Virus record (IMG/VR): IMGVR_UViG_2541047916_000002
Origin: a virus
Taxonomy: Duplodnaviria > Heunggongvirae > Uroviricota > Caudoviricetes
Length of the DNA stretch: 24,000 bases
Reading direction: 5' to 3' (one strand)
In this document: positions 1,369-23,040 of the stretch, piece by piece
Position numbering within the stretch: position 1 is the stretch's first letter
Layout of the letters: each line of letters starts with the position of its first letter
Notes under the pieces: model-generated
The model's input: the letters and a program-made list of their open reading frames with translations, nothing else
Database searches by the model: none
Told to the model about the DNA's origin: nothing
Made by a program: the position numbers and the translations under genes

Positions 1369-1444
1369 GCCGATATAGCTCAGTTGGTAGAGCAGCGCAT
1401 TCGTAATGCGAAGGTCGTAGGTTCGACTCCTATTATCGGCACCA
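1369..1444 (+). tRNA. thrW: tRNA-Thr (anticodon CGU)
   Basis: 76-nt cloverleaf GCCGATATAGCTCAGTTGGTAGAGCAGCGCATTCGTAATGCGAAGGTCGTAGGTTCGACTCCTATTATCGGCACCA with a CGT anticodon loop and CCA end; thrW is a known integration site for P4-type integrases. Confidence 0.9.
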
Positions 1445-1558: not shown

Positions 1559-1607
1559 GGGGGTACTTATGGGGGTATTTGCTGTTCGGTTTAGTGGAGG
1601 TACCCCC
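1559..1607. promoter_or_regulatory. putative integrase arm-type sites: GGGGGTA direct repeats (1559-1565, 1571-1577) and an inverted copy TACCCCC (1601-1607) between attL core and int
   Basis: Repeats read directly; the same GGGGGTA pair recurs at 22460-22478 on the island side of the right-end core. Confidence 0.3.
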
Positions 1608-1609
1608 AA

Positions 1610-2824
1610 GTGAAACTCAATGCCCGTCAAATAGACACAGCCAAGCCAAAAGAGAAGGCTTACAAGCTGGCCGATGGTGGCGGTTTGTATCTCTTGGTAA
1701 AACCTAATGGAGGTAAATACTGGCGACTTAAATATCGTGTAGCTGGTAAAGAGAAGCTATTGGCACTAGGTGTGTATCCTGAGGTTACTCTAGCCGATGC
1801 TCGGGCAAAACGTGAAGATGCGAAAAGAGGTATCGCTGGTGGTATCGATCCGATGGAAGCGAAACGAGAGGAAAAGATTGCCCGGGAAACGCAGTTAAAC
1901 AACACCTTCAAAGATATTGCCCTTGAGTGGCACAGCAGCAAATTAAAAAAATGGTCTGCTGGTTATGCTTCAGACATCCTCGAAGCCTTCAACAAAGATG
2001 TGTTCCCTTACATTGGCAAAAAACCAATCGCCGAAATCAAACCACTTGAACTTCTGAATGTGCTGCGGCGCATCGAGGGGCGCGGTGCGACAGAAAAAGC
2101 CAAAAAAGTGAGGCAGCGGTGCGGGGAAGTTTTCCGCTATGCAATAGTCACTGGTCGCGCAGAGTATAACCCTGCACCAGACCTTACTAGCGCGATGCAA
2201 GGCCATGAATCTAATCATTACCCTTTCCTTACGACCAAAGAATTACCTGATTTTTTCAAGGCATTGTCCAGTTACTCAGGAAGCGCATTGGTTGTTATGG
2301 CGGCTCGTCTACTGATTATCACCGGCTTGCGAACTGGCGAACTACGTGGCGCATTATGGGATGAAATTGATTTCAACAAGGCTATATGGGAGATACCCGC
2401 TTCACGTATGAAAATGCGGCGGCCTCATATTGTGCCATTGTCTGAGCAGGCTCTTTCGCTTATTGGGAAGATTAGAGAAATAACAGGCAATTACCCTCTT
2501 ATGTTTCCCGGGCGCAATGATCCAAGGAAAACAATGAGTGAGGCCAGCATAAACCAAGTGTTTAAGCGCATTGGCTACGCTGGACGTGTAACTGGTCATG
2601 GGTTCCGACACACTATGAGCACGATTTTGCATGAGCAGGGCTATAACACCGCGTGGATAGAAACGCAGCTCGCTCACGTTGATAAGAACTCAATTCGTGG
2701 CACATACAACCATGCGCAATATCTGGATGGACGGCGGGAGATGCTTCAATGGTATGCCGACTATATGGATTCTCTCGAGCATGGCGGAAATGTGGTGCAT
2801 ATGGTGTTTGAAAAACACGCATGA
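1610..2824 (+). CDS. tyrosine recombinase/integrase, P4 type (GTG start)
   Basis: 404-aa ORF next to the tRNA; the arm-binding N-terminus and catalytic C-terminus (RHTMST...HxxR...Y region) are typical of P4-like integrases. Confidence 0.85.
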   Translation: MKLNARQIDTAKPKEKAYKLADGGGLYLLVKPNGGKYWRLKYRVAGKEKLLALGVYPEVTLADARAKREDAKRGIAGGIDPMEAKREEKIARETQLNNTFKDIALEWHSSKLKKWSAGYASDILEAFNKDVFPYIGKKPIAEIKPLELLNVLRRIEGRGATEKAKKVRQRCGEVFRYAIVTGRAEYNPAPDLTSAMQGHESNHYPFLTTKELPDFFKALSSYSGSALVVMAARLLIITGLRTGELRGALWDEIDFNKAIWEIPASRMKMRRPHIVPLSEQALSLIGKIREITGNYPLMFPGRNDPRKTMSEASINQVFKRIGYAGRVTGHGFRHTMSTILHEQGYNTAWIETQLAHVDKNSIRGTYNHAQYLDGRREMLQWYADYMDSLEHGGNVVHMVFEKHA

Positions 2825-3455: not shown

Positions 3456-3886
3456 TGGAAAAGAAAAACCGCCCATTACAGGCGGCTAATTCAGATATTC
3501 GCGTATCTGATATTACGCCCCTTACAAAATCCCTTCAAGCACCAAAGCGCACACCGAAAAAGCATCGTGCCCGAGTCTATATGCTGCGTACTGGTATAGA
3601 GGGATGGACAGAAAATGACATTCTTCGCTACTGCCGTCTGTCTTCTGGTCGTAACTATGCAACAGAGTTAGAACGCCAGCTTGGAATCACTCTGGAGCGT
3701 ATCGACGAAAAGAATCCTGATGGTATCGGAACACACCTTCGCTACCGTTTCTCCTGCCGTGGTGATGTTCTGAAAGTGATCACTCATGTTAACCATCTTG
3801 CGAACATAAATGATCACAACGGACTTTCTCAGCAGGAAATTGCCGACATTCTGAAACTCTACCCGAACGCGTTTAACGCCGCCTAA
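3455..3886 (+). CDS. hypothetical protein (143 aa), basic N-terminus
   Basis: ORF with ATGA overlap onto alpA (translational coupling); no recognisable motif. Confidence 0.5.
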   Translation: MEKKNRPLQAANSDIRVSDITPLTKSLQAPKRTPKKHRARVYMLRTGIEGWTENDILRYCRLSSGRNYATELERQLGITLERIDEKNPDGIGTHLRYRFSCRGDVLKVITHVNHLANINDHNGLSQQEIADILKLYPNAFNAA

Positions 3887-3898
3887 CGGAGACTGAAA

Positions 3899-4732
3899 AT
3901 GAACATCGAAAAAAGCAGATTAATTTCTGAGGCCGCCCCTCATCTGAACGCCTCTCTGGGCACAATTAACGGTAATGAATTTGCCGCAATTGTCCCGGTT
4001 ATTCCTGGTCATATCGGTGGGCGTGAAACCAATATTGTTAGCGCAAAAGCGTTACACAAAGCGTTGGGCGTGGGAAAAGACTTCTCTACATGGATCACTG
4101 ATCGCATCTCTGAATATGACTTCACCATTGGGCACGATTACTCAGTCCATAAAACAATTTCCCCAAATTTGGGGAAAAGCCCGAATGGCGCGGCTTACAG
4201 CAAGATAAAGCACTCTGGCAGACCCGGCAAAGACTATCTGTTAAGTGTCGGAATGGCGAAAGAACTGGCAATGATCGAACGCAATGATCAGGGTCGCGCT
4301 ATCCGCCGTTATTTCATCCAGTGCGAGGAAGAATTACAGCGTAGCGTTCCTGAAATCGCCGCCCGCTATCGTCGCCAGCTAAAAGCCCGTCTCAGTGCCG
4401 CAAACAACTTTAAGCCAATGTGCGATGCGCTGAATATGGCCCGTGCCGAGATGGGTAAAACGACGCAGCAACACCACTACACAAACGAGAGCAATATGAT
4501 TTCTCGTATCGTTCTTGGTGGGCTAACTGCTAAGCAGTGGGCGCGGATAAATGGCTATTCTGGCGAACCTCGCGACCATATGAACGCAGAACAGCTTGAG
4601 CACCTCTCATATCTCGAAAGCACCAATATCACGTTAATTGATATGGGCATGGAATATGAGCAGCGCAAAGGAGAACTCACCCGCCTGTCGCAACGCTGGC
4701 TCGCCAAGCGTCTGGAGGCGCTCAATGTCTAA
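3899..4732 (+). CDS. AntA-domain phage anti-repressor-like protein
   Basis: N-terminal motif SAKALHKALGVGKDFSTWITDRI...YDFTIGHDY resembles the AntA/AntB anti-repressor domain; 277-aa ORF preceded by GGAGA. Confidence 0.55.
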   Translation: MNIEKSRLISEAAPHLNASLGTINGNEFAAIVPVIPGHIGGRETNIVSAKALHKALGVGKDFSTWITDRISEYDFTIGHDYSVHKTISPNLGKSPNGAAYSKIKHSGRPGKDYLLSVGMAKELAMIERNDQGRAIRRYFIQCEEELQRSVPEIAARYRRQLKARLSAANNFKPMCDALNMARAEMGKTTQQHHYTNESNMISRIVLGGLTAKQWARINGYSGEPRDHMNAEQLEHLSYLESTNITLIDMGMEYEQRKGELTRLSQRWLAKRLEALNV

Positions 4733-4904: not shown

Positions 4905-5302
4905 TACCCGTCCAGAAGAAGACATTTTCACTGGCTGGCATGTCGCCAAAATCCAGAAATATGACGGCAAAGTCAGGCATTAATACAGCAGATACAAGCA
5001 AAGTTTATCATTTGCTGGTGGTCGGAACGGATGCCTTAACCATACCAGAAATCTCGGGCGATGATATTAGCATTGAGAAGGTCAGCGGCTGCGCCAGAAA
5101 ATTTCTGGTCGTAGATGATGTCTTCCGCTCGTGTAGTGACTCCACAAAAACATTCGTCCACGCGCGTGACGTTAACGAAATGAGCGCGATGTACTGTGCT
5201 TCTGGTTCTTCCAATAGTGAGTTTTCGGAGTCCATAAAAAAGAGCTTGCCGTTATGCGGCAACACGGTTTATGGTTATAAGGCACCTCATAAAACGGGTG
5301 CC

Positions 5303-5531
5303 GGGTTTCGCAGCCCGGAAATGTACGAGGCGACACATGACGCGCCGAGCGTCTTTTTTTGTGCCGTTAGCCAGACTCACACTTTTTTCAGTGATGTGGT
5401 TATAATCCGCGTCGCTTGCAAAATTATGGTGGGCTGGACAGGGCAGCCGAAAGGCTGGCCGGTTTCCTTGTACGCCGGTACTGCGAACTCTGTTCAGTCC
5501 ACCACCAGCGAGTTTCGCAGCTCCGGTGGTG
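5303..5531 (+). promoter_or_regulatory. structured leader region: terminator, -10-like TTATAAT (5401-5407), GNRA-loop hairpin (5443-5456), three copies of a 16-nt motif (two direct, one inverted) and an 8-bp GC stem (5498-5505/5524-5531); possible P4-type RNA switch
   Basis: Motif GAGTTTCGCAGC(T)CCGG at 5303-5318 and 5509-5525; its near-complement CCGGTACTGCGAACTC at 5473-5488; all read directly. Confidence 0.3.
5339..5360 (+). terminator. intrinsic terminator-like hairpin GACGC-GCCGA-GCGTC followed by T7
   Basis: 5-bp GC stem plus seven T residues on the plus strand. Confidence 0.4.
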
Positions 5532-10488: not shown

Positions 10489-11244
10489 TCAAGTCGCGCT
10501 TGTTACTGCCTTCGCTGTCTTTTTCCTGTAGCTTTCACCTTTCAGTTCGAACATATATCCGTGATGGATCAGCCGGTCTGCCGCCGCCACCGCCATAGTC
10601 TCATCCACGAAGATGCTGCCCCACATGCTGAACGGATGGTTACTGGTTATCACCAGGCTCCCACGTTCATAGCGATGCGCTATTAACTCGAACAGTACTC
10701 CCGTTTCGGCGCTGTCGCGTTTGACATAGCCAAGATCATCCACCACTATCACCCGGTAGCGATCCAGTTTCAGTAGCAGCTCATTCAGTTTCAACTGCGC
10801 TCTGGCTTTACGTAGTTCCTGCAACAACTCTCCTGCGCTGTAGAACCGGGCCCGGTAGCCCTGGCCTACTACGCCATCCACGATCGCTGCCGCCAGATGG
10901 CTTTTCCCCAACCCGCTGGCTCCGAACAGCAGAACGTTTTCTCCTGCATCAACCCAGTCTGTCGTTTCACAGAGTTGCCGGAACTGAGCTCCATTCAGTT
11001 CCGGCACCTGACTGAAGTCGTATTCGCTTAGCGTTTTGGCAACTGGCAACCGGGCCTCCTTTTTATAACGACGCAGTTTTTCACTCTCGCGCCACAGGAG
11101 TTCTTCATTGCATAGCGTCAGAAGATAGCGCGATGGTGTCCAGCCTTCTGCCAGTGCTCGTTTTTCCAGAGCGTGCCATTCAGCTCCAACTCGTGTCAGG
11201 CGTAGTTTACGCAGGCTGCGTTCAAGGTGATGGATATTGCTCAC
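10489..11244 (-). CDS. istB: IS21-family ATP-binding helper IstB
   Basis: 251-aa ORF with Walker A GASGLGKSHLA; typical IstB size and position. Confidence 0.85.
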   Translation of the reverse strand: MSNIHHLERSLRKLRLTRVGAEWHALEKRALAEGWTPSRYLLTLCNEELLWRESEKLRRYKKEARLPVAKTLSEYDFSQVPELNGAQFRQLCETTDWVDAGENVLLFGASGLGKSHLAAAIVDGVVGQGYRARFYSAGELLQELRKARAQLKLNELLLKLDRYRVIVVDDLGYVKRDSAETGVLFELIAHRYERGSLVITSNHPFSMWGSIFVDETMAVAAADRLIHHGYMFELKGESYRKKTAKAVTSAT

Positions 11245-12740
11245 TGCGAACCTCCCTTGCCACGCAGTAGTTGCTCATAACTGCTCAGGTTATGCTGTTT
11301 CACATTGACTACCGGCAACGCCTTTTCCTTTATACCCAGGAAGCGCATCAGCCGGTGCAGATCCACGTTTCCCGGGGTATTCAGCATCTGCTCCATACCT
11401 TTTGCCACGACTGAGATATCGTCGTATCCTGCAGCCAGTTTCAGAGCATGTACCATCAGCCTGCCTGCCATGTCGGGTTCCAGATGATTACATAAGCGAC
11501 GCCACAGCCTCCGCCATTCATCGTCTGGCAGGATGTCATTTCTCAGCGTTGCATGGCAGAACGCACCGGGCTTTTTTGCCAGACTGTCGATCACATGTCG
11601 GAAGTCGATACGACGGGCCCGCGTCTTCCCTTTTTCTGGTCTGACACGTGGGCAGCTCATGACCTCGCTGCTGCCAACGTAACAGCTCAGACGATCGTCC
11701 CATAACCGGACCCGTAACAGTTGACCTACAAGCCGGGAAGGTACGCTGTAGACGACGTGCTTCACATTGATGGTACTGCTGCGGCTAACCCTCACAGTCA
11801 GCTCATCATAGTCAGCACTGCGACGAAGCGGCAGCGGTTTCAGATGAAGACGTTCTTCCTTGACCAGATCCTGATTGTTACGGTTGTGCCGCATAACCTG
11901 CTGAGTGATGAAGGCCTGATATTCTTCTATGGTGCTGAAGTCGTTACTGCCCCGCAGTATCAGCGCCTGACAGATACGCCTTTTCAGATGTCCGTGGGCA
12001 CTTTCAACCGAGCCATTTTCGTGGCCCCGACCGGCATTATTGTGTACGCCCTGCATTCCGTAGTGCTGACAGAGAGCAGCATAACGCTCAGTCAGCTCGC
12101 GGCGTCCATCTTCGCCCTGTTGTTTCCATGCTGCCCTCAGGCTGTCCGTTTTATGTTCTACCGGCACTCCGCCCAGTTGTCCGAGGGCTTCCTGCAGACC
12201 TTCAGCCAGAGCAGAGAAGCTCTCACCACCCAGCACAACCCGCATCCAGCTCCAGTGGCTCCATTCCAGACGGAAGTGATACAACTTATGCGCCAACAAC
12301 TTACCGGCGATGGTGACAACTACACCTTTCAGTTCAGTAAAGTCCGACAGACCTCGCAGACCGGGCTGATGTCGCTGGCGGAACATGACCTCCTGCTCTG
12401 CACCATACTGTAGCTTCCATTCGCGGACCCGCCGTTGCATTGTTCTTCGAAGGCTGTTGGGGTACTGGCCGGGATATTTATCCTGTAGCATCTCCAGCAG
12501 AGTTGTTGGTGTCAGAGCCGGCCTCTCTTTCAACAGAGGAACAAGCATGCTGTCCCACACAGCTTCCAGAGGATCTTTGCGTGTGCGCCAGTGCCGAACA
12601 CTGTTTTTTGCCCACTCTCCTTTTTCGATCCGACGACCAGAACGGACTGAGATACCAGCCTTCATGGCCGAGATATGCTGAGTTATACCTTTCTTACGCT
12701 GAGTCATATAGTAACTGACCTGAGAAGTATTGAGCGTCAC
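11241..12740 (-). CDS. istA: IS21-family transposase IstA
   Basis: 499-aa ORF with N-terminal HTH and a DDE-type core; 4-nt overlap with the downstream istB. Confidence 0.85.
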   Translation of the reverse strand: MTLNTSQVSYYMTQRKKGITQHISAMKAGISVRSGRRIEKGEWAKNSVRHWRTRKDPLEAVWDSMLVPLLKERPALTPTTLLEMLQDKYPGQYPNSLRRTMQRRVREWKLQYGAEQEVMFRQRHQPGLRGLSDFTELKGVVVTIAGKLLAHKLYHFRLEWSHWSWMRVVLGGESFSALAEGLQEALGQLGGVPVEHKTDSLRAAWKQQGEDGRRELTERYAALCQHYGMQGVHNNAGRGHENGSVESAHGHLKRRICQALILRGSNDFSTIEEYQAFITQQVMRHNRNNQDLVKEERLHLKPLPLRRSADYDELTVRVSRSSTINVKHVVYSVPSRLVGQLLRVRLWDDRLSCYVGSSEVMSCPRVRPEKGKTRARRIDFRHVIDSLAKKPGAFCHATLRNDILPDDEWRRLWRRLCNHLEPDMAGRLMVHALKLAAGYDDISVVAKGMEQMLNTPGNVDLHRLMRFLGIKEKALPVVNVKQHNLSSYEQLLRGKGGSQ

Positions 12741-13104: not shown

Positions 13105-13129
13105 GCTTCTTCATGTGCGTAGAAAAGGT

Positions 13130-13240
13130 GTTGGTTCAGTTGGTTCAGTTGGTTCAATTTGTAAAGAGTATTGTTTTATAAGGATTTTATTCTTTTTATT
13201 GAACCAACACTGAACCAACAACACGGTATTTTGAACCAAC
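13130..13240. repeat. iteron cluster, putative island replication origin: 3x GTTGGTTCA, 43-bp AT-rich spacer, 3x TGAACCAAC
   Basis: Six 9-mers read directly, immediately downstream of the primase gene, as in P4/PICI-type ori arrangements. Confidence 0.55.
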
Positions 13241-13349
13241 ACAATGTGACTGAATTGATGCGCACAACACCTGGCTGGCATCAGAGAGTGTTTTACGAGA
13301 CTTTCGTAAAATCCTGTGTACAAGGGCGTGACGTTTTTGAAAGTGAGCA

Positions 13350-13866: not shown

Positions 13867-14328
13867 ATGGAACTAAAATTTATTGATAACCCTGTGCGAT
13901 TACAGGCCTTTCTTAACGAGCCAGGCAATACCGAAAATATTGTTGAGCCGGGGCACACGTACTACATCAAGCCTGATGCGGTATATCTCGGCATCTACGA
14001 AGGATTAGTGCTGGCTGGCGTTCATGAAGTGCGTAACTTCTGGCATAGCGTTGTTGAATGCCATGCGGTGTACGACCCCGGATTCCGTGGTGAATATGCA
14101 CTGCAAGGGCATCGATTATTCTGCAAATGGCTTCTCGAAAACTCACCATTCCTTAACAGCATTACCATGGTTCCTGACACCACCAAATACGGACGGGCAA
14201 TTATCCGTTTGCTTGGCGCTACCCGTGTTGGTCACCTTGATGATGCTTATATCAGATGTGGTAAACCCGTCGGCGTAACGCTTTATCAGTTAACTCGGCA
14301 ACAATATAAGGAATTCAGCGAATGTTAA
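13867..14328 (+). CDS. hypothetical protein (153 aa), first gene of a virion-protein-like module (position equivalent to P22 gene 14)
   Basis: ORF translationally coupled to the next gene; no motif recognised. Confidence 0.45.
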   Translation: MELKFIDNPVRLQAFLNEPGNTENIVEPGHTYYIKPDAVYLGIYEGLVLAGVHEVRNFWHSVVECHAVYDPGFRGEYALQGHRLFCKWLLENSPFLNSITMVPDTTKYGRAIIRLLGATRVGHLDDAYIRCGKPVGVTLYQLTRQQYKEFSEC

Positions 14329-14975
14329 TTACCCACATAGCTCATAAACATCTCAATCGTGCCGTATACGAAAAAGGCGGTGATGGTGGTGCCTCTAAAG
14401 CTCAGGCGAAGGCCCAGCAGCAGGCAATTGATTTGCAGCGCGAGCAGTGGAATACGGTGATGAATAATCTCAAGCCGTATGCAGAAGTCGGATTGCCTGC
14501 TTTACAACAACTACAAGGACTGATGACTCTGGAAGGGCAGAATAAAGCCGCGAATGATTTCTTTGGTTCTGGTTTATATAAAACACAGGCAGATCAGGCC
14601 CGTTATCAGAACCTTGTCTCAGCAGAAGCTACCGGGGGGCTTGGCTCAACAGCTACCAGTAACCAGTTATCTTCCATTGCGCCCATGCTTTATAACAATT
14701 GGCTTAGTGGGCAAATGCAAAATTATGGAAACCTGCTAAATGTCGGGATGAATGCGGCATCAGGGCAGGCAACAGCAGGGCAACTCTTGCAGGGGCTTGG
14801 CGCTATTCGTGCAGGTCAGGCGCAGCAGCCATCCAGTCTTGCGCGTGGTATTGGTGGGGCGGCATCAGGCGCTTTAGCGGGTGCGCAACTTGGTTCCGTT
14901 GTTCCGGGTATAGGTAATGTCGCCGGGGCTATTGGTGGTGGGCTTATTGGTCTTGTTGGGGGGCTTGGATTCTAA
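14322..14975 (+). CDS. ejection-protein-like, P22 gp7-type (217 aa) with Gly-rich hydrophobic C-terminus
   Basis: Size, Q/A-rich composition, C-terminal glycine-zipper-like segment and gene order (217/473/701 aa versus P22 gp7/gp20/gp16 at roughly 229/471/609 aa); homology not verified. Confidence 0.45.
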   Translation: MLITHIAHKHLNRAVYEKGGDGGASKAQAKAQQQAIDLQREQWNTVMNNLKPYAEVGLPALQQLQGLMTLEGQNKAANDFFGSGLYKTQADQARYQNLVSAEATGGLGSTATSNQLSSIAPMLYNNWLSGQMQNYGNLLNVGMNAASGQATAGQLLQGLGAIRAGQAQQPSSLARGIGGAASGALAGAQLGSVVPGIGNVAGAIGGGLIGLVGGLGF

Positions 14976-16396
14976 TGGCGACATGGCAACTTGGCGGGCT
15001 GCCTAGCATGGCACCGCAAAATGATAATGCTCCTCGTTCTTCCGTTCCTCAGCCTGTGCAGTATCAGCAGCAGCCAAACGTAGGTTTAATGGCGCTACAG
15101 GGGCTAAGAGGCGTTGCTGAGATTAATCAGCAGGCACGTCAACAACAGCGTAAAGCAGAGTTTCAGAAAGCATATGCCGGGGCTTTTGAGTCTGGAGACA
15201 GAAACAAAATGCGCAGTCTTATTTCTGAGTATCCAGAAGAATTTGAAAGCGTTCAGAAAGGGATGGGCTTTATTGATGACGACCAGAGAAATTCTATTGG
15301 TCATCTTGCGACTAGTGCTCAAATCGCATCTTCGCTCGGAACTGGGGCATTTGGAAAATTCATAGCAGATAACGAAGATGAAATGCGTCGCTTGGGAATT
15401 TCTCCTGAGTCTGTTGCCGAAATGCATGTTAATGATCCACAGGGATTCCAGCGGCTTGCTGGTAGTATGGCACTGTTTTCTCTCGGTCATGAGAAGTATT
15501 TCGATATCAAAGATCAAATGGAAGGTCGGGATATTGAGCGTGGCAAGTTGGCAGAAACAATCCGCAGCAATCAGGCTGGCGAAGCACTTCAGGCGAGAGG
15601 GCAGGATATTAGCCGAGCAAATGCGTTAACGTCAGCATATGCACCAACAGCAGCAATGCAGAATTACAATCAGTACGCTCAAATGTTAAAGGCGGATCCA
15701 GAGGGGGCGGCGGCATTTGCGGCAGCGGCTGGAATTAATACAAACGCCAAAAAATTAATGAGTGTTAGAGAAAACGATGATGGCACTGTCACAAAATACT
15801 ACACAGACGGAAGTGAAGAGCAGGGAAAACTAAACCAGCCAATATCTGGAGATGGGTTTCGTCCAATAGCTTTGCCAACAGCCCAAAAGATCATGGAAAA
15901 GTCGCCAGAAGGGGCTAAAAAAGCTGCTGGATTTGCATACAGGGTTAGGGATGCTCTTGATTCAATAGATACACTGAAAGACCAGCTTAGCCCACAGCGA
16001 GTGGCGATCATTAATAATGCTTTGGGTAATGGGACGCTGGCTAACTTAACGCTCAGCCCAATAGAGCAGCAATACGTTGTTAATGCTAATGACGCAATAA
16101 TGGCAATACTCCGTCAGGAAACAGGGGCATCTATCCTACCAGCTGAAATGTCCAAATATTATCAAATGTATTTCCCTCAGCCTGGTGATTCCACAAAAAC
16201 CATTGATACCAAGCGCCGGAAGATGGAAAACCAGTTCAATTCGCTGAAAGCTGCTTCTGGTCGAGCTTATGATGCTTTGCGGGTTATTTCAGCAGTTGAC
16301 AGAGGAACTTCTTCTTCGTCGCAGACATTGCCGCAATCTGAGCAGGTATCACAGCCAGCAGCCAGCAGTAATTTTTCTTCACTATGGGGTGATTAA
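14975..16396 (+). CDS. ejection-protein-like, P22 gp20-type (473 aa)
   Basis: TAATG coupling to the upstream gene; Q/A-rich low-complexity protein of matching size and order. Confidence 0.45.
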   Translation: MATWQLGGLPSMAPQNDNAPRSSVPQPVQYQQQPNVGLMALQGLRGVAEINQQARQQQRKAEFQKAYAGAFESGDRNKMRSLISEYPEEFESVQKGMGFIDDDQRNSIGHLATSAQIASSLGTGAFGKFIADNEDEMRRLGISPESVAEMHVNDPQGFQRLAGSMALFSLGHEKYFDIKDQMEGRDIERGKLAETIRSNQAGEALQARGQDISRANALTSAYAPTAAMQNYNQYAQMLKADPEGAAAFAAAAGINTNAKKLMSVRENDDGTVTKYYTDGSEEQGKLNQPISGDGFRPIALPTAQKIMEKSPEGAKKAAGFAYRVRDALDSIDTLKDQLSPQRVAIINNALGNGTLANLTLSPIEQQYVVNANDAIMAILRQETGASILPAEMSKYYQMYFPQPGDSTKTIDTKRRKMENQFNSLKAASGRAYDALRVISAVDRGTSSSSQTLPQSEQVSQPAASSNFSSLWGD

Positions 16397-18501
16397 TGGC
16401 TAAAGCATGGAAAGATGTTATCGCTTCTCCACAGTATCAGGCGTTAGCACCAGAACAAAAAGCGCAGGCTCAAGAGCAATACTTCAATGAAGTCGTGGCC
16501 CCGCAAGCCGGAGAAAGTGTAGAGCAGGCTAAGCAGGCTTTTTATGCTGCCTATCCACTACCATCAACGAATGAAATAGACCGATCCCAATCAGCAACTC
16601 AAAATATTCAACATACATCATCTGATAATTCTCTTGCGTCAGGGTATGCAAAGTTAGCTACTCAGCAAAGAGAGGGGCTTGAGCGTTCAGCAGAACAGGG
16701 AGCCAGTCTTGGGGCTGCGATGCGCGATGCTATAACAGGCGAAAGCCGAATGACTCCAGAGATGGAGAGACTGCAAAATGTCGCCTCTGCCCCAGAATTG
16801 AACTCACTAAGCATGGATGCCCTAAAGGCTGGATGGTCTCAACTTTTCGGCTCTGACGCGTCTCAGGAAAAGATTCTTCAGGGAATGGGGGCGACATTAA
16901 GGCAGGATGAGAAGGGGAATACTATCGTTTCTCTGCCATCAGGTGATTATGCCCTGAACAAGCCGGGTTTATCACCGCAAGACCTGACTTCGTTTCTTGC
17001 TAATGCGTTGGCGTTTACACCAGCGGGCAGGGCTGGAACGGTGCTTGGTGCCATAGGAAAATCAGCAGCTACAGATTTAGCACTACAGGGAGCCACCAGC
17101 CTTGCTGGTGGAGAAGATATTGATCCGTTACAAACGGTAATTTCTGCTGGCATTGGTGGTATTGGTAAGGGGCTGGAAAATACAGCGAGTGCGGTTTCGA
17201 GGGCTGTTCGTGGTGATATGTCGCCTGAAGCAAAGGCTGCTGTCGACTTTGCATCGGAAAGAAATCTGCCGTTAATGACCAGTGACATGCTGAAAGATAA
17301 AACCTTTATGCAGAGTCAGGCTCAGACATTAGGCGAAAGAGTTCCTTTTTTTGGAACCGGTAAGAATCGGCTGAATCAACAACAAGCACGAGAAAATTTA
17401 GTCAGAACATTTAGCGATGGTCTGGGTGGCATTTCTGATAAACAGCTTTATGAATCTGCGACTAAAGGGCAACAAAAATTCATTGAGGCAGCAGGAAAGC
17501 GATATAACCGCATAATTGACGCTATGGGGGATACCCCTGTCGATCTCTCAAACACGGTAAAAGCTATCGACAATCAGATTGCCGTGTTAAGCCGCCCGGG
17601 CAAATCTCAGGATAGAGCCGCGGTAAAAGTCTTGCAGCAATTTAAAGACGATATCACCAGCGGACCAAATGACCTGCGTCTGGCGAGGGAAAACAGAACC
17701 GATCTTCGAAAGCGATTTATGGCGTCATCTGACACTGTTGATAAAGATACGCTCCAGAAAGCCAGCGATATTATCTACAAGGCATATACGGCGGATATGA
17801 AAAAAGCCGTAGCCAAAAATCTTGGAGCAGACGAAGCCATTAATATGGCAAGGGTTGATCGCTCATGGTCTAAATTCAATGACATGATGGGAAGAACGCG
17901 CGTTCAAAAGGCAATAGCCAGCGGCAAGGCCACGCCTGAGGATGTAACAAAACTCGTTTTTAGCCAAAGCCCATCAGAACGTTCTCAGCTTTACAGGCTT
18001 CTGGATGACAATGGTAGGCAAAACGCACGAGCGGCCATAGTTCAGAATGCTGTAGATAAGGCGACTGATCCGTCTGGAAATATCAGTGTTGAGAAGTTTA
18101 TTAATGCGTTACACCGGAACAGGAAGCAATCAGCAACTTTCTTTAAAGGCGTACATGGAAAGGAACTGGACGGCGTTATTAAATACCTCAACGATACAAG
18201 ACACGCGGCAAAAGCGAACGTTCAAAACTTAAATGGTCAGCAGCTTTATGGATTGTTAGTTGGTGGTGGCATCATAAACGCAGCAGTATTAGCGGGGATG
18301 CTAAAAACGGCTGCGTTTGTTGTTCCTGCTGCTGGTGCCGTAGGCGGAGCAGCGAAGGCATACGAAAGCCCTGTTATACGAAATGCCTTGTTACGTCTGG
18401 CAAATACGCCAAAAGGTAGCACAGCATATGACAGAGCGATCAGTACGGTCACACAATCGCTCACCAGAGTCGCACAGGCATCACAAAAAGAAGCTCAATA
18501 A
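16396..18501 (+). CDS. ejection-protein-like, P22 gp16-type (701 aa)
   Basis: TAATG coupling; hydrophobic Gly/Ala-rich C-terminal segment; position and size. Confidence 0.45.
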   Translation: MAKAWKDVIASPQYQALAPEQKAQAQEQYFNEVVAPQAGESVEQAKQAFYAAYPLPSTNEIDRSQSATQNIQHTSSDNSLASGYAKLATQQREGLERSAEQGASLGAAMRDAITGESRMTPEMERLQNVASAPELNSLSMDALKAGWSQLFGSDASQEKILQGMGATLRQDEKGNTIVSLPSGDYALNKPGLSPQDLTSFLANALAFTPAGRAGTVLGAIGKSAATDLALQGATSLAGGEDIDPLQTVISAGIGGIGKGLENTASAVSRAVRGDMSPEAKAAVDFASERNLPLMTSDMLKDKTFMQSQAQTLGERVPFFGTGKNRLNQQQARENLVRTFSDGLGGISDKQLYESATKGQQKFIEAAGKRYNRIIDAMGDTPVDLSNTVKAIDNQIAVLSRPGKSQDRAAVKVLQQFKDDITSGPNDLRLARENRTDLRKRFMASSDTVDKDTLQKASDIIYKAYTADMKKAVAKNLGADEAINMARVDRSWSKFNDMMGRTRVQKAIASGKATPEDVTKLVFSQSPSERSQLYRLLDDNGRQNARAAIVQNAVDKATDPSGNISVEKFINALHRNRKQSATFFKGVHGKELDGVIKYLNDTRHAAKANVQNLNGQQLYGLLVGGGIINAAVLAGMLKTAAFVVPAAGAVGGAAKAYESPVIRNALLRLANTPKGSTAYDRAISTVTQSLTRVAQASQKEAQ

Positions 18502-21237: not shown

Positions 21238-21588
21238 CCTAACCTGGTGACGGTGGTTCGCATATCCTGATGGATGATCAGTGATTAATCAATGCGCCAA
21301 GCAGATGTGTCTATGTGTTTGTTAATCATTGCATGACAGTAGATCGACATGGGAGATCACGTTATATAGTTGAATTGTTAGGATATCCATGCACCGATCA
21401 ACTGACTAGGCTGATGTGCTTTTTAGCAGGTGCCATATAGTAGTTAGGCGGTTCTGTGAAATGATTACTGTTCCAGCATAACTGCGGCATAAAGCGGTGC
21501 TATATAAGCTATTTGCTGGCGGATTTAGTCTTCACCGTTCATATATGTAGTGACTATTTGACAGAGTGTTAGTTCACGGACACTTTTT

Positions 21589-21688
21589 GTTGGTTCAAAA
21601 TGAGTTGATGTTGGTTCAATATTTTAGAAAAAACACAATAAAAACAACGCTCTTTACAAATTGAACCAACTGAACCAACTGAACCAAC
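21589..21688. repeat. second iteron cluster (2x GTTGGTTCA, AT-rich spacer, 3x TGAACCAAC), inverted relative to 13130-13240
   Basis: Reverse complement of 21646-21691 is identical to 13124-13169 (46 bp: AAAAGGTGTTGGTTCAGTTGGTTCAGTTGGTTCAATTTGTAAAGAG), then about 80 percent similar. Confidence 0.5.
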
Positions 21689-21724
21689 ACCTTTTTGCTT
21701 ATCTATATAATCTGAGAGGCAGAA

Positions 21725-22012
21725 ATGATAAGGGACAGGAAAGCTGAAGAGCTGGAGTCAAAAGGGCTATACCGGAGAGCTGCCGCACGATGGGCAGAAG
21801 TCATGATGCTGGCAAATGGCGATAAAGAACGTGAACATGCAGCAAACAGGCGCTCTGAATGTATCCGTAAGGCGGCACGCCCACCAGCAACTACAGACAG
21901 ATTCGGAGATTTAAGACAGGCAGTTAAGCGAACTCATTCGGCTCTTGGTATGGATGAGGAAGCGAGAGGGTACTTCAGGCGTTATCGCGATAAAGATTGC
22001 CAGAGACAGTAA
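21725..22012 (+). CDS. PerC-family transcriptional activator-like protein (95 aa)
   Basis: Motif AEELESKGLYRRAAARWAEVM...REHAANRRSECI resembles the PerC family pattern; GAGAGG SD. Confidence 0.55.
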   Translation: MIRDRKAEELESKGLYRRAAARWAEVMMLANGDKEREHAANRRSECIRKAARPPATTDRFGDLRQAVKRTHSALGMDEEARGYFRRYRDKDCQRQ

Positions 22013-22059
22013 TGCTCTCTCTGTTTTGGCAAATTACCCTTCACTTTGAAGGGAGCGGA

Positions 22060-22370
22060 GCTATAAAAATGGTTTTAGGTACATTCCTCAAATTGAGGTT
22101 TCCGAAAATATCAGCGGGTTAGCGATTAATCTGGCGAGTAATTAAACTGCGAAAATTTCGTAGGGGGTTACGAAAATTTCGTAGGTCTACTCATGGTTTA
22201 GGCTTACTTTCCCGACATCCCCCAATGGGGGGTTCGAAATAATCAATGGGTTAGGCTTACCTCCCCCCATTTCCTGCATTGCAGGTTTTCGAAAGAATCA
22301 ATGGGTTAGGTCATCGTGCAAATTTGCACTCTGCCAGCCAACGCAATTTCTCGTTGGCGGAAATATCAGG
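22060..22370. repeat. ORF-free array of direct repeats near the island right end: ATGG(G)TT(T)AGG x4, TTCGAAA-nAATCAATGGGTTAGG x2, ACGAAAATTTCGTAGG x2, GAAATATCAG x2
   Basis: Repeats read directly; location fits the P arm of attR, where recombination directionality factor and host-factor sites would lie. Confidence 0.35.
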
Positions 22371-22541
22371 TATTTACTGAACGAACGGTCTACCCGCCTG
22401 TTCAACTACCAGTTGTACATGGCTGCTTTATGTGCAAATGGTGGTGAGAGAAAATTATTTGGGGGTACTTTTGGGGGTATCTCCAAAGATGTAATGGGGA
22501 AATGTCTTTATATATCAATGTATTTTTATTGTTTGTTTTGT

Positions 22542-22551
22542 TCCTATTATC
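22542..22551. other. right-end copy of the att core segment (TCCTATTATC, identical to tRNA positions 1428-1437)
   Basis: 10-bp direct repeat of the tRNA 3' region, followed by sequence homologous to the int-upstream region at 1446-1609. Confidence 0.4.
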
Positions 22552-22701
22552 AACGTCTCCCCAAGTCTACTCAAGTATTTAAAAACCTCTTATAATCAGT
22601 ATATTAATGCCCCTTTTAGTCTTTTGACGTCTATTTAAGTACCCCAAACTCTACAAGCAATTGAGGGGATTTGCTGTTCAGTTTAGTGGAGATACCCCCA
22701 A

Positions 22702-23040
22702 GTGAAACTCAATGCCCGTCAAATAGACACTGCCAAGCCAAAAGAGAAGGCTTACAAGTTGGCTGATGGTGGTGGTCTGTACCTCCTGGTAAAACCTGGT
22801 GGAGGAGAATATTGGCGTCTCAAGTATCGTGTAGCTGGTAAAGAGAAGCTGTTAGCACTAGGTGTGTATCCTGAGGTCACCTTAGCTGATGCTCCTGCAA
22901 AACTTGAAGAAGCTAAAAGAGGTATCTCTGGGGGAATCGATCTGATGGAAGTGAAGCGAGAGGAAAAGATTGCCCGGGAAACGCAGTTAAACAACACCTT
23001 CAAAGATATTGCCCTTGAGTGGCACAGTAACAAATTATAA
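22702..23040 (+). pseudogene. truncated second copy of the P4-type integrase (112 codons, about 90 percent identical to the N-terminus of the 1610 gene), remnant of a tandem island
   Basis: Near-identical N-terminal 112 aa and upstream region; homology ends abruptly at 23037 and the sequence becomes AT-rich. Confidence 0.7.

Follow-up and report, generated by a model that had tools for sequence, protein, structure and literature searches.

The 24,000-nt stretch of DNA analysed here, which we call the window, comes from IMG/VR record IMGVR_UViG_2541047916_000002 and holds a phage-inducible chromosomal island (PICI) in thrW that is of the same kind as EcCIMP1, a known satellite of Escherichia coli. 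Read from the left, the window contains proA, tRNA-Thr, the 21-kb island, a truncated second integrase gene and a MarR gene, which is followed by vat in the matching genomes, the nearest of these being ECAMP047 and ABU 83972 (99.3–99.7% identity). The tRNA-Thr (CGU) gene, located by ARAGORN and the Rfam tRNA model at 1369–1444 on the plus strand, is thrW, the integration target. Its 3′ part holds the attL copy of a core direct repeat, TCCTATTATC (1428–1437, plus strand), and the attR copy stands at 22542–22551 (plus strand), so that identical short cores bound the element, the left one lying inside the target gene. The island encodes a tyrosine integrase (Int; 1610–2824, plus strand) with an N-terminal Arm-DNA-bind_3 domain (1.4e-28) together with Phage_int_M and Phage_integrase (Pfam PF13356, PF22022 and PF00589). 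Our subject is the right end of this island, which probably comprises two unrelated, adjoining features: the P arm and core of attR, with predicted arm-type Int sites, and an array of palindromic units predicted to bind Roi-like proteins and integration host factor (IHF).

EcCIMP1 is the thrW PICI of E. coli MP1, and the P22-like phage Kapi1 both induces it and transduces it (Pick, Stadel and Raivio 2025, PMC11773190). Sequencing of an attP PCR product established where the island ends, with TCCTATTATC as the flanking direct repeat or core att site, and its excision requires both int and alpA (PMC11773190). We observed that the published boundary, 3,565,708, is the last base of TCCTATTATC and that a GGGGGTA pair lies 81 bp from it in MP1, as it does from the core end in the window. 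The two islands further share the order proA, tRNA-Thr, PICI and MarR/vat island, and a gene set of int, AlpA, an antirepressor, Ash, a primase, DNA-transfer proteins and PerC. The window variant differs from EcCIMP1 in having an IS21-family insertion, other genes at its far right end, and a palindrome/IHF array after perC that MP1 lacks. The EcCIMP1 paper describes neither arm sites nor an array (PMC11773190).

A second island adjoins the right boundary. In strain 789 the right end of the island stops at the same 10-mer, with the chromosomal flank directly after it. In the window, similarity extends rightward of 22552 (87% over about 350 bp, alignment A1), and this is not core but the attL-type arm and 5′ part of int of a second, tandem thrW island, of which a remnant with a truncated int of 112 codons occupies 22552–23040 on the plus strand, as alignment A1, a Pfam Arm-DNA-bind_3 match and the RefSeq pseudogene annotation all indicate. 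The tRNA 3′ fragment expected after the attR core has been deleted: set against locus L006 (3614–3640), window positions 22542–22560 lack 10 nt, a loss that matches the damage which tRNA-Thr PICIs are described as causing to the tRNA fragment left at attR (PMC10111431). Six of seven other aligned attR arms lack a single G at this point (GCACCA for GGCACCA).

Doubled arm motifs at the two ends of the island

The P arm of attR (22446–22541, plus strand) starts at a cargo/arm boundary near 22445 and carries a doubled GGGGGTA motif. An earlier note on this DNA had placed this pair about 70 bp inside the right core copy, had seen the same pair with an inverted copy about 120 bp inside the left core next to int, and had read them as arm-type integrase sites organised as P-core-P′. 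We located the right-hand copies at 22461–22467 and 22473–22479, 63 bp before the core; measured from its centre, the pair is 81 bp away from the end of the core. The left-hand set begins 122 bp past the core and stops 2 bp before the int GTG; it consists of a P′ arm pair, GGGGGTA-N5-GGGGGTA, with a 12-bp period (1559–1577, plus strand; copies at 1559–1565 and 1571–1577) and its centre 131 bp from the core end, and of a third, inverted copy (1601–1607, minus strand) flanked on one side by the Shine-Dalgarno sequence GGAGG and on the other by the GTG start of int. In all, GGGGGTA occurs seven times in the window against an expected 1.40, a count that none of 100 shuffles reaches. The sixth copy (22693–22699, minus strand) is assigned to the tandem-island remnant, in whose P′ arm one GGGGGTA has gone through a 12-bp gap and the other is mutated, leaving this inverted copy intact.

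Diverged arm copies collected from other E. coli genomes show that these motifs stay fixed as the surrounding sequence changes. Five attL arms, down to about 75% identity, retain TGGGGGTA-N4-TGGGGGTA and the inverted TACCCCC before the start codon, which is invariant, while their flanks vary (alignment A2). Eight attR arms retain TTGGGGGTAC-(T/A)-TTTGGGGG exactly at a mean column identity of 68% (alignment A3), and the cargo beside these eight arms differs, with a HEPN nuclease, a SIR2 protein and an integrase fragment among them. The distance from pair centre to last core base is 79–85 bp (mode 81) on the P arm and 131–133 bp on the P′ arm, apart from one arm, with an internal stop in int, where it is 141 bp. 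Among 126 loci the doubled motif is confined to those of the thrW type. Invariant motif and spacing in diverged arms, restriction to thrW and the geometry described below together bear out the P-core-P′ reading of the GGGGGTA pairs.

That geometry is the one reported for helper-embedded PICIs (HE-PICIs), whose attPs carry a doubled motif of 12-bp period on either side of the centre, at a distance of 81 ± 2 bp on the upstream side and 132 ± 2 bp on the downstream side (Tommasini, Mageeney and Williams 2023, PMC10111431). The window shares with them the two tandem copies, the 12-bp period and the co-oriented pairs at about 81 and 132 bp, as well as the damage to the tRNA fragment at attR seen in tRNA-Thr PICIs; it differs in the motif itself, GGGGGTA as against TGTATTGC in HE-PICIs, and in the extra inverted copy at the start of int. 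The HE-PICI authors reported their motif to be absent from other PICIs (PMC10111431). When about 115 PICI loci were scanned for exact repeated 8-mers, 157 were found at an offset of 12 bp against 10–88 at the other offsets between 8 and 18, making the 12-bp offset 2–15 times commoner, and the motif families at this offset (TGGGGGTA, ACTACACC, GTGTATTG and AAACAGCG) differ between integrase groups. This repeat pattern suggests that doubled arm motifs are a general trait of this integrase clade and that each group has its own motif sequence.

Two further sets of sequences lie between the arm sites and the core. The P′ arm contains a pair of 15-nt direct repeats spaced 63 bp apart, AAGTCTACTAAAGTC (1460–1474) and ACGTCTACTAAAGTC (1523–1537), together spanning 1460–1537 on the plus strand and invariant in the five diverged attL arms of A2, with a third TCTAC near 1546; across the window the repeat pattern shows no enrichment. 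Their conservation marks them as candidate accessory-protein sites, which could serve another recombination protein. IHF-like sequences matching the consensus at 12 of 13 positions are present on both sides, as TATCAATGTATTT (22513–22525), which is partly conserved in A3, and as AATCCGCGTATTA (1491–1503), situated between AAGTCTACTAAAGTC and ACGTCTACTAAAGTC.

We conclude that the GGGGGTA copies are most likely arm-type integrase sites: the integrase has an arm-binding domain, the motif is unlike the core and recurs on both arms, and the spacing from arm to crossover is fixed. The N-terminal domain of the island integrase would engage copies 12 bp apart, about one helical turn, and in the excised circle one pair would stand 81 bp before the crossover and the other 131 bp after it, with the inverted copy and then int beyond. 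Between the right pair and the core, DNA bending at the near-consensus IHF site could join arm to core, and the third, inverted copy might let Int repress its own gene. Autoregulation is known for IntS of KplE1. Two points tell against this assignment, namely that both within-arm IHF-like sites carry one mismatch each and that Tommasini et al. leave open whether AlpA or Int binds the analogous HE-PICI motif (PMC10111431). AlpA, acting as excisionase or regulator, might occupy the doubled motifs in place of the integrase arm domain, and it is a protein required for EcCIMP1 excision (PMC11773190), with tandem direct repeats being typical of Xis-type sites. We give this alternative little credence, however, as the motif stands on both arms at distances typical of arm-type sites, its sequence shifts with integrase group and integration site, int has a dedicated arm-binding domain, and the position of the third, inverted copy, at the ribosome-binding site of int, fits an Int that regulates its own gene.

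The palindrome/IHF array and its counterpart in roi genes

To the left of the arm, the earlier note had described about 300 bp that were free of open reading frames (ORFs) and dense in repeats of at least four families, and both descriptions were right. A repeat search of 22000–22720 returned eight direct-repeat families and three inverted pairs, including a 39-nt family with three copies (22084, 22216 and 22271), an exact 15-nt pair 21 bp apart (22150 and 22171) and a 21-nt pair (22193 and 22246). No ORF of at least 60 aa lies wholly within 22013–22541; a single 60-aa frame with a TTG start (22413–22595) crosses the arm and core. We found that the apparent direct repeats are better read as co-oriented composite units, in which a palindrome is followed by an IHF-consensus sequence. 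The array at 22037–22376 comprises four such units, each made up of a short variable palindrome, a spacer of about 10 nt resembling TTTCCGAAAA, and a perfect IHF consensus, WATCARNNNNTTR, with four additional palindromes interspersed.

From left to right, the array opens with the palindrome CCCTTCACTTTGAAGGG (22037–22053), which has 7-bp arms, forms a stem in the fold predictions of both strands and has no IHF site after it. Unit a (22086–22121, plus strand) consists of the palindrome CCTCAAATTGAGG, a 10-nt spacer and the IHF consensus TATCAGCGGGTTA (22109–22121). Two operator-like palindromes 21 bp apart, CTGCGAAAATTTCGTAG and TACGAAAATTTCGTA, follow at 22147–22184 (repeat families D6 and I2). 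Unit b (22219–22253, plus strand) has the palindrome CCCCCAATGGGGG(G), a spacer and AATCAATGGGTTA (22241–22253), and unit c (22273–22308, plus strand) has the palindrome CCTGCATTGCAGG, a spacer and again AATCAATGGGTTA (22296–22308). The perfect palindrome GTGCAAATTTGCAC (22316–22329), also without an IHF site, is conserved in the PICI loci L004, L005, L007 and L008. Unit d (22337–22376, plus strand) contains the inverted repeat GCCAACG...CGTTGGC, a spacer and TATCAGGTATTTA (22364–22376).

This arrangement is highly concentrated in the array. Four of the eight IHF-consensus matches of the window fall inside 270 bp, all on the plus strand, and a hairpin of at least 5 bp located no more than 12 nt upstream of an IHF consensus is found at four places in the window, all of them in the array, whereas 200 random windows average 0.17 (maximum 2). 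When 39 unit variants were placed in one register, 93% of palindrome positions were complementary, compared with 67% after shuffling (reached in 0 of 500 trials) and 32–52% in slid controls, although the units were picked by their IHF motif and commonest hairpin register, which favours pairing somewhat and to that extent tells against selection as the cause. All five palindrome pairs vary on both sides. Because of this excess of pairing and the changes on both sides of every pair, we regard the symmetry of the palindromes as selected. Stem mismatches are few and show no bias of G:T over A:C, as expected for symmetry of double-stranded DNA.

Units a, b and c have counterparts, palindrome included, inside different roi alleles of lambdoid and P22-like phages. 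When single units were compared by BLAST with 50,697 phage records, only roi or ant genes were matched (68 and 48 records). Unit a matches roi of P27 and D6 and, at 28 of 30 nt, the roi-internal site of HK620, H-19B, CUS-3 and Kapi1, so that the helper of EcCIMP1 itself carries a type-a roi site; for unit b there are 68 matching records, among them roi of HK629 and VT2-Sakai (81% over 53 nt) and of many Stx phages; and unit c matches roi of CP-1639 (88% over 40 nt) and the roi-internal site of HK022. The homologous segment encodes residues of about 40–58 of Roi, within the N-terminal, Rha-like part of a protein that also has a KilAC domain. In an alignment of three roi alleles (A4), the coding sequence is near-invariant on both sides of a hypervariable stretch of 13 nt, which forms a palindrome in every allele (CCCCCAATGGTGG, CCTCAAATTGAGG and CCTGCATTGCAGG) and is followed by TTT(T/C)CGAAA and then by AATCAATAACTTA. 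In HK022, roi reads CTGCATTGCAG, an 11-nt spacer and AATCAATGATTTA, the sole IHF-consensus match in the 4-kb nin region of that phage. The unit pattern is also matched inside a Rha-like coding gene (L024 type, reading ...QLPPMGISENINGLG...). As a separate observation, roi of CP-1639 (L124, 268–435) is split into two ORFs, apparently by a frameshift due to an extra A in the spacer A-run of its palindrome/IHF unit.

This homology can be set beside older work on Roi. In a 1996 study by Clerget and Boccard, the roi gene of HK022 reportedly proved to contain a binding site for Roi itself, with an IHF site close by, and Roi was bound more stably when IHF was present; Henthorn and Friedman (1995) are said to have found that growth in hosts deficient in IHF is prevented by rha of phi80 and P22. 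The units of the array resemble the HK022 site in having a short dyad, a spacer of about 10 nt and an IHF consensus, and they are homologous to roi allele by allele. The phage site is a single copy within coding sequence, whereas the window has four units (1–7 in other islands) that are tandem, non-coding and of mixed alleles, in a satellite without roi. Judged by sequence, units a, b and c are tandem, non-coding copies of the composite roi site, drawn from several alleles. With homology to the roi segment, an IHF consensus about 10 nt past the dyad and compensated changes in the dyad, the array has the hallmarks of a Roi/IHF site; because it is non-coding and tandem, it is a variant and not a strict member of that class. 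Homology, dyad covariation and the IHF consensus point to a site that most likely binds Roi-like proteins together with IHF.

The array might instead consist of non-functional fragments of roi or rha, left by repeated recombination between satellite and helper in the late zone. In favour of this, the units share homology with about 50 nt of the coding sequence of roi, an in-frame reading resembles the Roi peptide (PQIEVSENISGL, PALQVFERINGLG), the number of units differs between islands, and PICI late zones do capture helper genes (PMC10111431). Against this, it is always the same segment of 45–55 nt that is present, the strongly conserved flanks of roi never stand alongside, and the units are co-oriented in every case. 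The frames in the window are broken, with a 55-nt period and a stop in unit b, the IHF consensus is perfect in four of four units, and the array palindromes match or surpass those of roi (CCCCCAATGGGGG compared with CCCCCAATGGTGG of HK629) and covary as well. Some part of the 548-nt interval 22013–22560 (array, arm and core) is, moreover, matched in 1190 of 5426 complete E. coli genomes, about one fifth. We therefore consider an origin as mere debris unlikely.

A second alternative is that the units act as RNA, either as hairpins in the 3′ untranslated region of perC or, where the array is reversed, as antisense to helper roi mRNA. Predicted folding is better for the two strands than for shuffled controls (z = −2.9 and −3.5), late-operon read-through in TerS-type PICIs would yield RNA complementary to roi mRNA, and the island already uses antisense RNAs of the C4 and isrK type. 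Against this, no Rfam family is matched even at E = 10, the stems have just 5–7 bp with no terminator-like sites, stem mismatches lack a G:U-type bias, the orientation to flanking genes is not conserved, and the conserved part outside the hairpin is exactly the IHF DNA consensus. Given the covariation, the mismatch pattern, the missing Rfam match and the lack of terminators, we favour a double-stranded DNA site, and a role as RNA appears very improbable. Debris and RNA are both less likely explanations than binding by Roi-like proteins and IHF.

Distribution of the array and its genomic setting

The degenerate unit pattern matched 93 IMG/VR contigs, in which arrays hold 1–7 units and at least ten palindrome types are represented. 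Its exact form, searched over 185,579 species genomes, gave only 11 singleton and apparently random matches, and no array-like match was present in the phage collection. The unit looks restricted to E. coli at that stringency, or else the pattern is too strict. Among the papers searched, none links PICIs with IHF-site arrays and none gives the Roi footprint.

The position of the array separates it from the attachment site. Two dinD-adjacent islands (L007 and L008) share with the window a block of ejection-protein genes, the PerC gene and the array; homology to them ends at about 22445, 16 bp before the first GGGGGTA, and beyond this point they carry a different pair of 12-bp period, GTGTACATAA. 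Six thrW islands that have the same arm and other cargo contain no such unit in the 520 bp upstream, and EcCIMP1 of MP1, which excises and transfers, has no array after perC or beside the arm. In TerS-type PICIs (L003 by phoQ, L004 and L005) the array is again int-distal, on the strand opposite the island genes, and inverted relative to the arm as compared with the window. Because the array moves with PerC, is missing from the six thrW islands and EcCIMP1, and is inverted in TerS-type PICIs, it lies outside att, in the cargo (late) zone of the island, and lacks the co-inheritance with an int and recombination directionality factor (RDF) pair, and the fixed position and orientation to the core, that RDF sites would have. 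The earlier note had taken the whole of 22060–22551 as the attR arm and the roughly 300-bp array as Int and RDF sites; from about 22446 to 22551 this assignment stands, and for the repeat array at 22037–22376 it does not. An extended P arm whose array supplies Int and AlpA sites needed for excision has in its favour that the array adjoins the arm, is rich in repeats and contains IHF-consensus sites of the kind found in att arms, but it is highly improbable in view of this distribution, including the company of a different doubled motif at another integration site, and of the homology to a site inside phage roi genes.

The TerS-type PICIs offer some further observations. They have a lambda-like cosN, GGGCGGCGACCT, at a distance of about 400 bp from the array (L003 at about 4515–4535; L021, L023 and L026), with a conserved 93-aa gene in between. 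A conserved block, GGGCGTTAATGTCGATATGGGGATCCCCA, with a strong palindrome around GGGGATCC CC, is found in L003 (about 3757–3791), L004 (about 3712–3745), L020, L021 and L026; in TerS-type and helper-embedded PICIs this block separates the array from the att end. Lambda cosB (R3, I1, R2 and R1, that is TerS sites with an IHF site) resembles the array in combining protein-binding repeats with an IHF site near a packaging function, and in TerS-type PICIs the array is within about 400 bp of cosN; unlike lambda cosB, the array of the window has no cosN in or near it, and its palindromes differ from one another and are not repeats of one TerS site. Published PICI cosB regions lack the R repeats and I1 (PMC9026076), and published PICI cos sites adjoin rpp and have no IHF sites. 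RIP/RIB elements of the E. coli chromosome (BIME-type REP, IHF site, REP) are a second comparison, as they too place an IHF consensus beside palindromic DNA, extragenically and at the 3′ ends of transcription units. The array differs from them in its variable palindromes of 11–17 bp in place of the REP consensus of about 35 bp, in having one palindrome per IHF site on one side only, and in being confined to PICI-type islands, whereas RIP/RIB elements are dispersed through the chromosome.

Several other identities were tried and set aside. A cos site was sought as a match to GGGCGGCGACCT in 22000–22600, and none was found with two mismatches allowed. For a replication origin, the PICI-type iterons TGTTGGTTCA sit elsewhere (13129–13241 and 21567–21689). 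A repeat-protein gene could be imagined from a 74-codon open frame in L004, which is broken in the window, though no search for family matches was aimed at it. For intrinsic terminators, TTTCC or TTTTC does follow hairpins, but a terminator scan finds none in the array. Known structured RNAs, CRISPR and type III antitoxin repeats were likewise rejected, with no Rfam match above noise and with the reverse of the repeat pattern, since here the palindromes vary and the linkers are constant.

Besides int, the island carries genes for AlpA, an AntA antirepressor, an Ash-family protein and a DUF927/Toprim primase, and three unknown genes. Within the Ash-family ORF lie isrK and C4 antisense RNA genes (5282–5509; Rfam 69 and 81 bits), an immunity RNA module of the P1/P7 immI type in the regulatory zone of the satellite. 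Directly after the primase gene is an IS21-family element with IstB and an IstA-like transposase (10489–12740, minus strand); EcCIMP1 of MP1 reportedly has an IS1 in its stead. Homologues of the P22 DNA ejection proteins gp14 (DUF2824), gp7, gp20 and gp16 are encoded at 13867–18501, inside the PICI; the dinD-site PICIs L007 and L008 have this P22-like block as well, and the known relative of the island is mobilised by a P22-like phage. The ejection genes are bracketed by two mirror-image clusters of the iteron TGTTGGTTCA, one after the primase gene and the IS21 element (13129–13241) and the other just upstream of perC (21567–21689), each with three direct and three inverted copies around an AT-rich stretch, which is the published layout of PICI replication origins. 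The PerC-family regulator gene itself (21725–22012, plus strand; Pfam PF06069, E = 3e-33) is the cargo that precedes the array here and in the dinD-site islands. Derivation of the right arm from a P22-like prophage remnant was rejected, as PerC and the ejection-gene block recur in PICIs elsewhere and EcCIMP1 has ‘DNA transfer’ genes.

Possible roles of the array

If the array does bind Roi-like proteins and IHF, each unit would take up a dimeric Roi-type protein of matching specificity together with IHF, and the array as a whole could form a multi-allele nucleoprotein platform at the int-distal end of the satellite. The island encodes an AntA-type protein, and no Rha-domain gene was found among its proteins, so Roi-type binding proteins must come in trans; they would be supplied by resident or infecting (helper) phages. 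Such a platform could serve as a decoy for helper Roi, as a sensor of the helper or as a roadblock to transcription. The absence of a binding partner from the island is one of three points that weigh against this interpretation. Another is that any role of the array must be accessory, because EcCIMP1 works without it. The third is that the dyad is equated with the Roi site by inference from the reported HK022 footprint. A plasmid reporter of alpA (−449 to +50) answers helper induction by itself (PMC11773190), so the array is unnecessary for helper induction of alpA.

We speculate, with considerable doubt, that tandem, mixed-allele Roi/IHF operator arrays work in cis on the Roi antirepressor-like proteins made by several types of helper, either soaking them up as a DNA ‘sponge’ or sensing them. 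If so, titrating or reading an early helper protein would tune helper development, satellite transcription or packaging, and the array would be a protein decoy made of non-coding DNA, so far undescribed for phage satellites.

The two features of the right end differ in what they add. The arm is of a routine kind in an already characterised satellite; with it, the 81/132-bp architecture is now extended from helper-embedded PICIs to an experimentally characterised tRNA-targeting PICI, and a group-specific doubled motif can aid the precise mapping of PICI ends. The array is a known phage cis-element in an unexpected place and form, previously undescribed. It ties satellites to the roi/rha family of phage genes, known for 30 years to depend on IHF, and raises testable questions as to whether each roi allele recognises the palindrome in its own gene and whether satellites exploit that recognition.

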